A stretch of 64,000 nt of DNA, from NCBI GenBank assembly GCA_964016885.1, contig OZ024745.1, positions 89,590,001 to 89,654,000 on the forward strand, read 5' to 3'. The translations under genes were made by a program, and so were the position numbers. The notes under the pieces were generated by a model. The model was not told the origin of the DNA. It saw only the letters and a program-made list of their open reading frames with translations, and did no database searches. Below, piece after piece: positions 9,556 to 58,502 of the stretch (positions are counted from its first letter, which is position 1; the number at the start of each line of letters is the position of its first letter). The stretch is from Eledone cirrhosa. Taxonomy: Eukaryota.

Positions 9556-10502
9556 TGAAAACTAGCGTGCTGCGTGGTTGCACATGGATTACATATGAAT
9601 AAAATTAGTCCTTCATCAGTGATCTTGCAACCTTCATTGTTAACGTGTCCCAATAACTTTTTTTCAGTTATTGCTCGCACCAACCAGAGGTATAGCCAGT
9701 CACTCTCTCTCAGCTGCACTCTTCCTCACCCGTTCACTCACTCACTCTCTGCTTCTCTCCCTCTCTAACTTCCTCCCGTTTGACCTGTGTGAAATCCTTT
9801 TCTCACTCACATCTCGCCCTGGTCGGATGGTCTTTACCTCTCGTCTATTATTTCACCGAGCTTAAGTTCATAGATATCACGGACTTGTCTCTTCTCTTCC
9901 TCTCTTTCCGTTGCATTACCATCTATGTTTGTTTACATGTCTCGCTCGATTCACCCTATTTTACGCATCCCAATAACTTTCTTTAGTTATTGCTCGGACC
10001 AACCAGAGGTATATGATCTTTAAAGCGAAGAAATACCAATGAAGGTTGGAAGATCACTGATGAAGGACTAATTTTATTCATATGTAACCCATGTGCAACC
10101 ACACAGCACGCCATTTTTCATATATTTATGTTTCCCTCCGCTGAGACCTGTCTGTTTCTTTCATACAGCTTCCCCTTTCTGTGCATCTCTCACCTTTTTT
10201 TTTACCCCCTCTACAAGTCACGCTCTCTCAGCTGGCCTCTTCCTCACACTTTCACTCACTCACTCTCTGCCTCTCCCCCTCTCTCACTTCCTCCCGTTTG
10301 ACCTGTGTGAAATCCTTTTCTCGCTCACATCTCACCCAGGTCGGATGGTCTTTACCTCTCGTCTATGATTTCACCGAGCTTAAGCTCATAGATATCACGG
10401 ACTTGTCTCTTCTCTTCGTCTCTTTCCGTTGCATTACCATCTATGTTTGTTTTCATGTCTCGCTCGCTTCACCCTATTTTACGTGTCCCAATAACTTTCT
10501 TT
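9556..10502. mobile_element. family J: fold-back arm 9556-9695 plus ~1.6 tandem ~500-nt monomers
   Basis: CCGTTTGACCTGTGTGAAATCC recurs ~500 nt apart; 9556-9650 is the reverse complement of ~10040-10120; (TA)n on both sides. Confidence 0.8.
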
Positions 10503-10794
10503 ATTAATATATATATATATATATATATATATATATATATATATATATATATATATATATATTTATTTATTTATTTATTAAAATAACAGATTAAAGTTTA
10601 AGCAAAGAATCGCTGTTAAAGGTGAAAGCACCGATTATTTGCTTAAACTTTAATCTGTCATTTTAATAAATATTTGCTCTACGGTTCTTATATATGTGAT
10701 ATATAGTTATCCTTATCGAGCCCTCTTTGGATTTTAGTCTTCAAATTCATTATTATTACTATATATATATATATATATATATATATATATATAT

Positions 10795-10922
10795 ATAGGA
10801 ACCAGTAAGACCCCGACAGCTGAGCTCAAGCCGTTTCGACGGCTAATTCTGGACTGAATTCAGTCCAGAATTAGCCGTCGAAACGGCTTGAGCTCAGCTG
10901 TCGGGGTCTTACTGGTTCCTAT
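10795..10922. repeat. perfect 128-bp palindrome at the 5' end of a family D copy
   Basis: Centred on GAA|TTC at 10858/10859; each arm carries GAAACGGCT..AGCTGTC. Confidence 0.95.
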
Positions 10923-12477
10923 TATCCACTCTACTACCTCAAGTATTGAGTACTTTGGTGCGTTATGGTCCACCTGGTTCCTTACCACATTTCTTTCGTT
11001 ATATATATATATATATATATATATATATATATATTTAATTACCTGTAACTCACTGGGATCCATTTAATCGACTTTCCCCTACCCCCAAAATTGGTGGCGT
11101 TGTGCCTATATTATTATGGATCTTTGTACGTTTCGACGATGCGTCTTCCAACAGGTCAAAGATTAATCTAATTCTAATTATTGAATACTACTATTGCTAA
11201 AGGTAATGGATTGAATACTACTATTGCTAAAGGTAATCATATTGATATTTTTAGGTATTTATTTATAGTTCGTAATCTCTCAGTTCTTAAAACGCCAAGA
11301 CTGAAATTGCTTTCCTTCTGGGTTGGGTGAAATAAATACCAGGCTAGTACTACTATGGTGGTTATAATTGACAGCACATGGAAACCAATATGACATGCCA
11401 GCCGTTGATGGATACCTCTCTTTACCAAAACAGTAAACAACCGAGCCTATTTATTCACTATTGGTAATTCAAGATATATATAGTTTCAGCAGCATTGTCA
11501 TTTTCTGGAATGTACCAATGTCTGTTTTCATAAAATGTTTGTCCATATTTTTACAGATGAGGTTGTGTTTAATTCCAGTTATAACAATTGCAAATGGAAT
11601 AATTGATACAGTACTAATCTGATGTAATATGTTTAATTAAATAGTTAAGTCGAAACATAGTTATCCTACGGAAGACCCAATTTTGGGGGCCAAGTTTGTT
11701 CATTGAAGAAATTCAGTTGTAGGTCTTCTTTTCGGTTTCTTACCCTGAATAACAAACATGGTCTCCTGAGCTGCAGCATATGTGCACCTTATCTTATCAG
11801 ATCCTACCAGACTTTCGTAGAAACGTAGAATGTTGTACTCCGGTGTCTAGATGCAGTAAAAGAATACCTGAACCATACTTTTATGTTTTCATTTACATTT
11901 TATAAATTAATAGAAAAACATTGCACCTCACCAGATCCTAGCAGCTTCTCATTGTAGAAACATCTAAGGTTTGATCTGAGCTGTTGCAAAAGAGTAAACT
12001 CCGTTAAAAGTTTTATGTGGTGCTTCGTCTAATGGAATATACAATATATTGCTGGATTGATCTCAAAGGTAATAAACTATACAACATACTTACATTAGAC
12101 ATCATTTCACCAAATTTAATACTCTACCATCAACCTCAATATTCCTATCAGTTCTGCATTACGAAAACATTAAAGCACATCGACCCACTCCAGATACCAA
12201 GATTATATCCGCGCTTATGGACTAAAATACGCGTCAAAGCTTTACAAACGAATATAAACACACGAAGCTCAATACACAGTACCCCACACAAGCAGACGTG
12301 TATACAAACAAAAGGTCATACCGAACTATATATGTGTGAAATCACAACCAATATCCAAGACAGCAATGAAGTCCTCACAAGAAAACAGAAACACAGACAC
12401 AAGAGCACGCAAAACGAGAATATAAATGATCATGTTGATGATGATGAGGATGGCGATGGCGACGGTGATGACGATAT

Positions 12478-13110
12478 GATAACGTCGACAACAGTGATGA
12501 CGATGCAATAACGTCGACGACGGTGATGACGATTCAATAACGTCGACAACGCTGATGAGGATGCAATAACGTTGATCACGGTGATGACGATACGATAACG
12601 TCGACAACGGTGATGACGATACAATAACGACAACGACGGTGAAGACGATACGATAACGTCGACGACGGTGATAATAATACTATAACGTGGATGACGGTGT
12701 TAACAATACAATAACGTCGAAGACGCTGATAACAATACAATAACGTGGATGACGGTGATAACAATACAGTAACGTCGATGACGGTGATAACAATAAAATA
12801 ACGTAGAAGACCGTGATGAAAATACAATAACGTCGATGACGGTGATAACAATACAATACCGTCGACGACGGTGATAACAATACAATAACCTCGATGACGG
12901 TGGTGACGATACAATAACGTCAACGACGGTGGTGACTATACAATAACGTCAACGACGGTGGCGACTATACAATATCGTCAACGATGGTGATAACAATACA
13001 ATAACGTCAACGACGGTGGTGACGATACAATAACGTCAACGACGGTTGTGACGATACAATAACGTCAACGACGGTGATAACAATACAATAACGTCGACGA
13101 CGGTGATGAT
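12478..13110. repeat. 29-bp CpG-rich minisatellite, about 20 copies
   Basis: Unit CAATAACGTCGACGACGGTGATGACGATA, flanked by (GAT/GAC)n. Confidence 0.9.
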
Positions 13111-14495
13111 GGTGATGACGATATGATAACAACAAGGACCACTGTAACAATACGACAACGACGACGACAACGACGATGACGACGACCTCGCTGGTGATTG
13201 CTATCATGGATTAACCTTCTTATGGAAAAGAAGTCGAAATTTTAGACGGCTTAACGCAATGAAAATACATACGGAACGAACGGAATTTCATATAAATCAA
13301 CCCGATTAAATGAACATGAGTTTTATTATTAATTACTGCACTGATGTTGACTTAATCCGCATTAAGACTGGATTTATTAATTAATTATTTTACAATGGTT
13401 ATTTTTATTGTTGTTTACTTTCTTTAAATTTGAATATTTCAGTTATCGCATGAAACCACCTCTTCTAACATTGATGTTGATTATCTCCCTTTATGGCAAC
13501 TCTTTCTGCATTAGTTACTAATGGCTACCAGTTCCTACAGCGATAAAGTCATTTTATGGTGAATAATTATTTCAAATCAAACGGAAAGGCGTGCATAATT
13601 GTTATCGTTACAAAGCATTATAATGGCGCATTTCAAATTTTAACGACCATTGTTATAATCTTTCTCCTTTCTTTCTTCCGTATGTGTATGTTAGACATTG
13701 GATGCCAGATTTAAGCTCCTACTAATGATGGGTATAAGCAGCATGCAACGAATGTCGCATTAGATTTTCAGAACTTTGCACATTTTACAATGCCATTTCT
13801 TCTTTCTAGAAAATTCTTTGTGCTATATTTTCAACTCTTTACACGAGCAGAGGCATGCCTGTATGTTTAAGTAATTCACAACTGCAACAGTGCACCTCAC
13901 TTTGGCTAAAGGCCTCCTAATGTAGACCCGTGTTGTTTAATGGTCTGCGATATCTGTTTTTAGTTATGTTTTCACCTATTTCTCCATCATTTTATCTACT
14001 TTCATTCTTTCTATTAGCTATTTCTATTTATATCTCATCATTTAATACATTCATACCGAATAGCTTCTATCTGTGTAATTTTCTCTCCATCAATTTTCTC
14101 TTGATCTCATCGTTTCACTAACTGTATCTTAAAAGGCTACCTCCATTCGTATCCTTTTATTCTTTCCTCTCCATTTATCTCACCCTCTCTCGATTTCTTT
14201 CCTTCCATTGGTTCAATGTTTATCTCCTAAATATCTTACTTGAGTTAAAATAGGATAAAGAGATATATTCTTACTATTCTCTAAAATCTCCCAATAGCTA
14301 TCTCTATCTTTTTCTCTCCTTTTTCTTATAGATTCTGCCTTTCGTCTATTTTTTTCTCCTACCCTCTCCTTCTCTCACCCTCACACAAATTCCCTCCGCC
14401 TCTCACTCTCTCCTCTCGGTCTCACTGTCTCGTCTGAAATCAGTCACCCTCTCTACTCCACTCCTCTCTTTCCTCCATGCATGCATATTTCTTGT

Positions 14496-57499: not shown

Positions 57500-57627
57500 A
57501 TTGTTTCTACTTTTGGCACAAAGCCAGAAATTACTCAGTGCATTACTGGTACCTTATTTTATCGACCCTGCAAGGATGAAAGGCAAAGTTAACCTCGGCG
57601 GGATTTGAACTCAGAATGGCAAGGGCT
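57500..57627 (-). mobile_element. 5'-truncated tRNA SINE inserted in a family G monomer
   Basis: Same SINE family; TAATAA on both sides (possible TSD). Confidence 0.8.
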
Positions 57628-57733
57628 AATAATAACATTCGATTCGTTTACAATTTTGCAAAGAAGCCTCAATTTTATAGCCATGTCAGTAGAATGAACA
57701 CATCATTCTTGCTCTTGTGTTGTCATGCGAACA

Positions 57734-57783
57734 GATCTGCAGACACTAATGTTTCTGGGTATCACCCTTCATCAGTACAGCTC
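57734..57783 (-). ncRNA. type I hammerhead, family G
   Basis: Intact core and GUC. Confidence 0.85.
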
Positions 57784-57904
57784 ACTGTTCACATGCCAAA
57801 CATCAACCAGTCTCCTAATATGCAAATCAGGCCGATCAGTCACTGTGTATTTTTGAAAATAGCATATATTTTCACTAGCTCTCACAGTTTGGCAAGTGAA
57901 CAGT

Positions 57905-57954
57905 GAGCTGTACTGATGAAGGGTGATACCCAGAAACATTAGTGTTTGCAGTTC
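57905..57954 (+). ncRNA. type I hammerhead, family G (GUU site)
   Basis: GAGCTGTA-CTGATGA-AGGGTGATACCCA-GAAA-CATTAGTG-TT-TGCAGTTC. Confidence 0.85.
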
Positions 57955-58502
57955 TGTTCGCATGCCAAAATAAGAGCAAGAATGAAGTGTTCATTCTACT
58001 TACAAGGCTATAAAATTGAGGCTTGTTTGCAAAATTGCAAACGAATCGAATGTTATTATTAATATTCGAAAAACTCAGATTACATTTATTGTATTCAATC
58101 ATGTAGAGCGAACCTTTCTTTTATATAAATATATATATCTTTTCTCTGTATTCTTCTCTCCATTCTTTCTCTCTCCTCCTCCGTCTTCTTTTCATTTCTT
58201 TCTTCCTCTCTCGTTATGTTCTCTTCTCTCTCTCTCTTTCTATCTCTCATTCTCACTGTCTTCTTCATCTCTCTCTCGCTCATTCCCATCTCTCTCTCAA
58301 CCGCATACCTTTTGTCCTCCTCTCTGTCAGTTTTTCCCTTACTTTTATGTTTTCTCTCCCTCTCTCTTCTAGTGGTTCGTTAAATAGAGATCAATACAAT
58401 AAGTAATAAATTGAAAATCAAACACACTTACACACACACACACATACACACAAATATTTGGACTTGGTACCTGGAAAGCCCTCTTGAAAGAGATACAAAA
58501 AA

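Follow-up and report, generated by a model that had tools for sequence, protein, structure and literature searches.

The insertions described here lie in a 64-kb window (64,000 nucleotides, nt) of Eledone cirrhosa DNA (assembly GCA_964016885.1, contig OZ024745.1, positions 89,590,001 to 89,654,000 of the forward strand), from which all of the DNA-level evidence is drawn, and each joins a sequence to an inverted partial copy of itself, with outer ends that in the non-coding insertions stop at two different sites. With high probability these loci are insertions made by Penelope-like elements (PLEs), and the PLE reverse transcriptase (RT)-endonuclease (EN) responsible is most likely of the Hydra clade. 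We propose that both nicked strands of the target prime reverse transcription, at two family-specific sites of the RNA, a reading (dual priming) that we consider probable on balance. Dual priming is supported because the outer ends differ at 11 of the 11 loci compared, because a long (L) and a short (S) end site recur across loci, and because neither arm is contained in the other at four loci and, conditionally, at a fifth; it is supported also because PAc, a PLE protein of Anolis, extends both strands from two internal RNA sites in vitro (PMC11167929; this and the other papers cited were available in part).

An earlier note on the window had named 11 loci, to which some are added here; the feature that it overlooked, the asymmetry of long and short end known in PLEs as the tail, is the informative one. 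Outer ends were mapped relative to the predicted cleavage site of the hammerhead ribozyme (HHR), with an uncertainty of about 5 nt as ends blur into TA, and were compared at 11 non-coding two-armed loci (ten named ones and 10799), the open reading frame (ORF)-bearing PLE at 3020 being excluded. The two ends are unequal at every one, by 32-174 nt. In family B (the non-coding families are lettered A to I; Table 1), L lies at about +143 in 4/4 long ends and S at +54 in 2/2 arms; in family C, L lies at +174 (2/2) and S at +142 (2/2), with the sides swapped between its two loci. All four two-armed loci of these families have one L and one S, and all three armless copies of families B and D end at the long site. 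TA-likeness is no greater at S sites than at L sites; that of ends as such (p 0.002) was not used, being biased by how ends are called. For the fold-back test, made on these 11 loci without the PLE, in which the self-copy must lie within the first strand, coordinates were entered by hand and whole-monomer shifts were allowed. Neither arm is contained in the other at 29616, 31318, 39611 and 57039; containment fails also at 46526, a locus without a second copy for comparison, if the element includes about 75 nt to the left of its arm. A single folded-back cDNA therefore cannot by itself account for four loci and, conditionally, a fifth, so that, of the two routes offered earlier, fold-back of the cDNA or a second priming, only the latter fits all loci.

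Self-BLAST, run with microsatellites masked because an unmasked run was swamped by (TA)n, places an inverted arm at all 11 named loci. Close inverted pairs, with inner ends no more than 2.5 kb apart, number 30 in the window against 0-1 in 20 block shuffles, and three of the 30 connect separate loci. Direct partial tandems accompany the arm at six loci, with periods of 518 (9556), 2325 (27126), about 662 (31318), about 1460 (40149), about 490-500 (47494) and about 430 nt (57039); the same comparison found none at 29616, 30950, 39611 and 46526, and the ORF-bearing PLE has no direct tandem, only a 128-nt re-inverted piece at 7680-7807. The layout of arm plus tandem claimed for all 11 loci thus holds for the arms and, for the tandem, at six. 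Two of these loci also need new limits, the PLE running to 7807 and the 46526 locus probably starting near 46441. Further armed loci, outside the first list, are 10799-10996, 34966-35311 and 46068-46413, whereas self-comparison found no adjacent arm in five SINE-like (short interspersed element) copies of one family, two tRNA-headed copies or the copies of long interspersed elements (LINEs). The main junctions are seamless and TA-free, with an overlap of 0-2 nt in nine of the ten examined and of 5 nt in one (40260, family E). Because the flanks are (TA)n or TA-like, target-site duplications (TSDs) are unreadable in them.

Polarity was called from type I HHR descriptor scans with shuffle controls, because Rfam gave a single sub-threshold hammerhead match over the window (HH9, 42709-42780, 36.5 versus 52 bits) and none for families B and C. 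The descriptor returned 19 motifs, 17 with a perfect core, whereas 40 shuffles gave 0.5 motifs on average, none of them with a perfect core; a looser scan returned 28, of which 24 scored at least 10 (shuffles: mean 0.8, maximum 3), adding family I and, weakly, family D. Families B, C, E, F and G thus have perfect-core motifs, I has one with one mismatch and that of D is weak; the descriptor scans found no type I HHR in families A and H. Orientation is based on a perfect-core HHR at six loci, on homology at 30950, on the one-mismatch motif at 47494 and on the ORF in the PLE, and the main junction is head-to-head at all nine orientable named loci, which bears out the earlier statement that arms are mostly so arranged; 9556 and 46526, having no validated ribozyme, are without polarity. 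Further HHR motifs, of other small families, lie at 42727, 43219, 45947, 46316 and 47246; those at 45947 and 46316, separated by 369 nt, enclose a 35-nt inverted piece (46068-46102).

Measured from the predicted cleavage site, the 3′ ends fall 17-395 nt downstream, and most arms extend beyond the site. Because ends and junctions miss this site and most arms pass it, the template ran through the ribozyme; the cleavage site as element end or junction was rejected, since the positions do not match. Of the circular or multimeric template suggested earlier, read-through is the part that is needed, and a circle and an uncleaved multimer both fit. Template heterogeneity was rejected as uninformative for telling the two apart. 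At 47494 the arm and the outermost monomer have five substitutions and an indel in common, states that are uninformative because one of them restores HHR stem I pairing: they may be ancestral, with monomers 2-3 having been duplicated afterwards. The monomer differences at 31318 also fit a star pattern.

Under dual priming, a PLE protein would bind an RNA that runs through the hammerhead, as seen in the sequence, and that may be an uncleaved multimer or a circle. Both target strands would be nicked in a (TA)n tract, as the observed flanks and the activity of PAc in vitro suggest, and each 3′-OH would prime RT at one internal site, L or S, 32-174 nt apart, the positions at which the outer ends are seen. 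The two 5′-truncated cDNAs, one of them sometimes extending across monomer junctions, would then join head-to-head with the 0-2 nt of microhomology visible at the junctions, the joining perhaps passing through a short snap-back of one cDNA, the copy of which anneals to the other. The outcome would be an arm with an optional tandem, two outer ends that are both 3′, and a tail on one side only. The non-coding families would be retrozyme-like passengers, presumably mobilised in trans by a PLE (Hydra) protein. That both outer ends are 3′ ends, as the earlier note held, is part of this model for the non-coding loci and does not apply to the ORF-bearing PLE, whose right arm stops about 1 kb short and re-inverts. 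A similar reaction is the twin priming of L1, in which both target ends prime on the RNA and a head-to-head inversion with short microhomology results; the inverted piece there does not duplicate the direct piece, whereas here the arms overlap and start near the same 3′ region. A twin-priming variant, with the first cDNA halting at the second primer, was unsupported, as inner ends do not as a rule meet the outer end of the other arm.

The closest biochemical precedent lies in PAc (Poseidon of Anolis), which in vitro cuts both strands of its target and extends them; it needs no HHR cleavage, starts RT at two sites inside the RNA that correspond to the genomic tail, and has been modelled as a dimer (PMC11167929). 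The loci here share with it two internal sites downstream of the HHR that define the tail, and an AT-rich target. PAc belongs to a different clade, however, and the available parts of PMC11167929 neither assign the sites to opposite insertion ends nor explain the inverted arm; a literature search, in which subscription journals and older PLE reviews were thinly covered, found no paper that gives each of the two start sites its own end of a single insertion. As a more tentative extension, which we hold possible rather than probable, PLE integration may be an obligate two-primer reaction of a dimeric RT-endonuclease, in which one nicked strand is used at the long and the other at the short start site of the RNA, with a large and varied set of non-coding hammerhead elements (0.3-2.3 kb) that bear the full footprint as PLE passengers.

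Several observations weigh against dual priming or its generality. Simple fold-back is equally compatible at six of the 11 loci tested, and inner offsets of 0-50 nt at five loci resemble snap-back, those at the other six being at least 70 nt. Independent loci define L and S in no more than four cases, for which the chance of one of each is 1/16 taken by itself, and the end rule is drawn from one window and 11 loci. Tails reach 174 nt, against 30-40 nt in published PLEs, and are longer than the published range at nine of the 11 loci. Neither the family B nor the family C motifs were recognised by Rfam, and most of ten folded HHR motifs have a minimum-energy structure other than the three-way fold, their cleavage being predicted. 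The ORF-bearing PLE does not end 3′/3′, its piece at 7671..7807 breaking the rule, and the window holds no intact autonomous PLE partner.

The main rival explains the same geometry: a self-primed extrachromosomal hairpin or multimer cDNA would receive staggered GIY-YIG cuts at L and S and then integrate (EN-mediated resolution). Since such a hairpin can exceed the final insert, unequal ends and non-containment are accounted for, and the short-ended arm does have a loop of 13-50 nt at 29616, 31318, 39611 and 46526. The junctions of family D and of the first family B locus lie within HHR stem II hairpins, as self-priming would have it, and published accounts attribute the tail to EN resolution (PMC8557442) and infer self-priming from junction palindromes (PMC3846280). 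The tail ends of PAc in vitro are nevertheless the start sites of target-primed RT (PMC11167929), junction microhomology is mostly 0-2 nt and the larger inner offsets recur at six loci; we consider EN-mediated resolution unlikely, while it is the strongest of the alternatives. Somewhat less likely again is the simple version of the earlier note, in which one target-primed cDNA folds back and copies itself into an arm. The geometry allows it at six of 11 loci, the 5-nt microhomology at 40260 suits it, and the double inversion of the 3020 PLE resembles repeated template switching; it requires a further template at the four firm loci and the conditional one, and so fails as a general model, and it leaves the recurring S stop of arms unexplained. 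Improbable, in our view, is an origin after insertion, whether through DNA fold-back at (TA)n palindromes, repair at them or separate insertion events, with short ends as later deletions: a mini-palindrome at 42412-42497 mirrors the long end of family E with similar flanks and a TA centre, the pair at 1159-1716 lies tail-to-tail around a TA tract, and locus G shows later homogenisation or collapse, but the main junctions are seamless and TA-free, the arms go no further than the ends of the element, copies of SINEs and LINEs are armless and no L/L combination occurs among the 11 main loci.

Arms differ by 0-8% substitutions, and by at least 1% in ten of the 12 arm pairs; those at 10799 and 27126 are identical. 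In family C, divergence is as large within loci as between them, star-like at 7-10% for all pairs. The arm differences and the family C pattern therefore disfavour a chimeric origin, as the earlier note had argued for most cases; fold-back chimeras of reads or assembly, to which the identical arms at 10799 and 27126 and the identical outer 633 nt of locus G might be ascribed, are very improbable, given also that symmetry ends with the element and that ends recur at family-specific sites. At 31318 (31419-33059), all eight mismatches fall in the inner 171 of 804 nt (P about 4e-6 if uniform), pointing to later conversion, junction-proximal mutagenesis or assembly collapse. The innermost monomer of the 47494 locus, 48981-49149, is likewise its most diverged.

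The layout itself is already known for autonomous PLEs (PMC2377424, PMC3846280, PMC8557442). The commonest structure of Penelope in D. virilis is a partial tandem with inverted repeats (PMC2377424); head-to-head arms, an optional tail and self-priming are described in PMC3846280, and the same layout is drawn in PMC8557442, with a 30-40 bp tail that is often on one end only. The partial tandem is described as frequent rather than obligatory. EN+ PLE insertions (D. virilis Penelope, Adineta Pen2a, Naiad; PMC2377424, PMC3846280, PMC8557442 Fig. 2) and the present loci have in common the partial tandem, an inverted 5′-truncated copy at the 5′ end and a one-sided tail, and the microsatellite target that hides TSDs in the former resembles the (TA)n or TA-like flanks of the latter; the earlier assignment to a PLE-type architecture is thus upheld by arms, tandem and tail. 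The present loci differ in that ten of the 11 named ones are non-coding, four have arms and no tandem, and the tails are family-specific and 32-174 rather than 30-40 nt long. A PLE-type origin is further supported by the Hydra motifs in window ORFs, by the 17 perfect-core HHRs as compared with none in shuffles, and by the armlessness of SINE and LINE copies.

Read from their translations, the ORF-bearing copies carry the predicted features of Hydra-clade PLEs. This clade has an HHR near the 3′ end and inserts into (TA)n (PMC8557442 section 11, whose supplement has an octopus family, Hydra-1_Obim), and it shares with the window ORFs a CxCx5C linker, a GIY-YIG domain without CCHH, and CxxC and CxH near the C-terminus. 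Here, three ORFs have the linker and lack CCHH in the GIY-YIG core, and one has also the C-terminal CxxC/CxH; the Pfam match to GIY-YIG is weak (E 0.004) and below cut-off. The 3020 PLE and four other fragments match five full-length database proteins by tblastn, and four of these five relatives have motifs similar to the N-terminal RWK/DKT; the RWK/DKT region and the RT core motifs are missing from the window copies, all of which are truncated or broken. TA flanks surround them. The 3020 element has a 3′ region of about 1.9 kb with a one-mismatch HHR motif at 3196-3158, and its arm stops at the equivalent of 4021, about 1 kb short of the 3′ end of the left copy, before it re-inverts. Other truncated Hydra-type fragments lie at 82-693, 8089-8391, 35731-36198 and 49683-50739, making five in 64 kb with the 3020 element. 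An antisense piece at 51859-52161 is 71% like 3121-3424 and has a variant hammerhead core, the post-stem II motif of which recurs in family H.

The non-coding loci gave no tblastn match to the five PLE proteins and contain no long ORF, only short AT-rich frames. Families E and F align with each other (z 8.7), and family B with the 3′ end of the PLE at 49662-51835 (z 4.8), so that "unrelated families", as they had been called, is too strong; judged by alignment, the families are distinct and in part related, and this PLE is, through its 3′ region, a candidate for the type of autonomous partner of family B. Like non-long terminal repeat (LTR) retrozymes (PMC7229834; bioRxiv 10.64898/2026.07.22.740005), the families are non-coding, in part arranged as tandem monomers, and mostly carry predicted type I HHR motifs, and retrozymes have been proposed to depend on PLEs, with kinship to the PLE pseudo-LTR (pLTR), to which the alignment of family B is comparable. 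Retrozyme monomers measure about 170-400 nt, however, while periods here are 430-2325 nt and family B has no tandem; stem III is mostly short and palindromic, as in the minimal HHRs of PLEs. The families thus appear to work like retrozymes, as atypical members with putative circular RNA and putative self-cleavage. In the available part of PMC7229834 "inverted" occurs 0 times, and arms and tails are unmentioned; in the main text of bioRxiv 10.64898/2026.07.22.740005, the supplements of which may bear on arms and tails, "tail" is absent and "inverted" is found a single time, in the title of a reference. The Hydra-clade passages of PMC8557442 make no mention of non-coding derivatives such as those found here. 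Family A may be a derivative of a Naiad "half-core", but a motif search of the supplement of PMC8557442, where long records are cut, gave no match.

Table 1. PLE copies and non-coding loci of the window
Position	Strand	Feature	Basis or remark
3020..6090	-	5′-truncated degenerate Hydra-type PLE: RT end, linker, C-terminal GIY-YIG	ORFs, tblastn with full-length relatives
6091..7670	+	Inverted arm of 3020 PLE	4.3% substitutions
7671..7807	-	Third, re-inverted 128-nt piece of 3020 PLE, equivalent of 4555-4682	Self-comparison
9557..10506		Family A: 86-nt left arm, right partial tandem of period 518 with 199-nt internal deletion	Ends differ by about 137 nt
10799..10996		Family D: two identical arms of 60 nt; short end on the left, long end (+80 nt) on the right	Self-comparison
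27126..29592		Family F: minus-strand tandem, period 2325, HHR 27377-27329	Ends differ by 174 nt
29618..30402		Family C locus 1: long end on the left and short end on the right, without tandem	HHRs 29825-29792 (-), 30221-30254 (+)
30950..31276		Family B locus 1: short arm on the left and long end (+89 nt) on the right, without tandem	
31319..33058		Family G: both arms longer than one monomer (about 662 nt)	HHRs 31780-31714 (-), 32698-32764 (+)
33091..33358	+	Armless copy of family B with the long end, HHR 33169-33215	
39611..40041		Family B locus 3: short arm on the left and long end on the right, 13-nt inner offset	HHRs 39708-39663 (-), 39851-39896 (+)
40150..42337		Family E: 110-nt left arm, HHR 40229-40165 (-)	Ends differ by about 87 nt; 5-nt junction microhomology
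46441..46812		Family H: arms of about 125 nt, 8% apart, spacer of about 30 nt	
47494..49568		Family I: tandem of 3.3 minus-sense monomers; the 420-nt arm reaches 66 nt further 3′	
49662..51835	+	Second truncated Hydra-type PLE, perfect-core HHR 51730-51779	ORFs, HHR scan, tblastn
57039..58121		Family C locus 2: partial tandem with the short end on the left, long end on the right	HHRs 57206, 57775 (-), 57913 (+)

Some details complete the table. Family A has only a CTGATGA half-core at 9557..10506, its polarity being unconfirmed; two further copies of it lie tail-to-tail around (TA)n at 1159-1716, the reverse of the usual arrangement. The armless family D copy at 8690-8900 ends at the long site, and a second, diverged armless copy of family B lies at 2201-2467 (-). 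Family F has a plus-strand arm of about 40 nt (29557-29598) and, inside its period, a SINE copy (27788-27971); a SINE is inserted also in the second family C locus (57498-57626). In family G the long end is on the left and the short end on the right, with a difference of 103 nt and an inner offset of 35 nt. The right tandem of family E (period about 1460) has HHRs at 40685 and 42140 (+); next to it, at 42338-42572, a 232-nt palindrome centred on a TA tract contains two identical 20-nt copies of the family E long end with similar TA/CA flanks and looks like a DNA-level fold-back duplication. Family H probably extends about 75 nt to the left, to (TA)n, and has a ribozyme motif that is split between the arms and not validated. 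The one-mismatch motifs of family I lie at 47738 and 48227 (-) and at 49259 (+).

The window as a whole is animal-type DNA dense in repeats, has numerous (TA)n and (CA)n tracts, and contains LINE ORFs (RVT_1 and endonuclease matches) and a Helitron-like helicase fragment at its end (62010-64000). Two tandem LINE copies of about 5.5 kb, 81% alike, with a partial third piece between them and (TATC)n ends, occupy 15112-26828. One SINE-like family is present at 27788-27971, 30418-30615, 57498-57626, 58496-58683 and 61249-61448, including the copies inside the F and second C elements, and a tRNA-headed one at 9279-9487 and 33474-33675. Short palindromes adjoin TA tracts at 10572-10672 and 43030-43058, the first matching 45693-45730 just beyond the end of an RTE-like LINE. 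Inverted arms of 129-190 nt, about 90% alike, surround a 720-nt microsatellite-rich core at 53657-54850, which may be a terminal-inverted-repeat element. A TA-flanked partial tandem at 56108-57002 (period about 592 nt) showed no arm and no hammerhead, and a 29-nt minisatellite of 22 copies lies at 12460-13109.

The origin of the tandem, inverted and tail structures of PLEs is stated as unresolved in the available parts of PMC8557442 and PMC11167929. What is new here, within one window, is the footprint of this layout on non-coding hammerhead families, their long, family-specific tails and the geometric argument against a single fold-back. The one-long-one-short rule and the non-contained arms can be counted genome-wide and yield a clear in vitro prediction. 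Such copies resemble miniature inverted-repeat transposable elements (MITEs) or satellites and are easily misannotated. The link between retrozymes and PLEs has so far been argued from co-occurrence and pLTR similarity (bioRxiv 10.64898/2026.07.22.740005), and direct structural evidence for it would come from this footprint on non-coding HHR families. If PLE integration is an obligate two-primer reaction, the arm, the one-sided tail and the tandem would be products of one mechanism, and there would be structural proof that animal retrozymes are passengers of PLEs.

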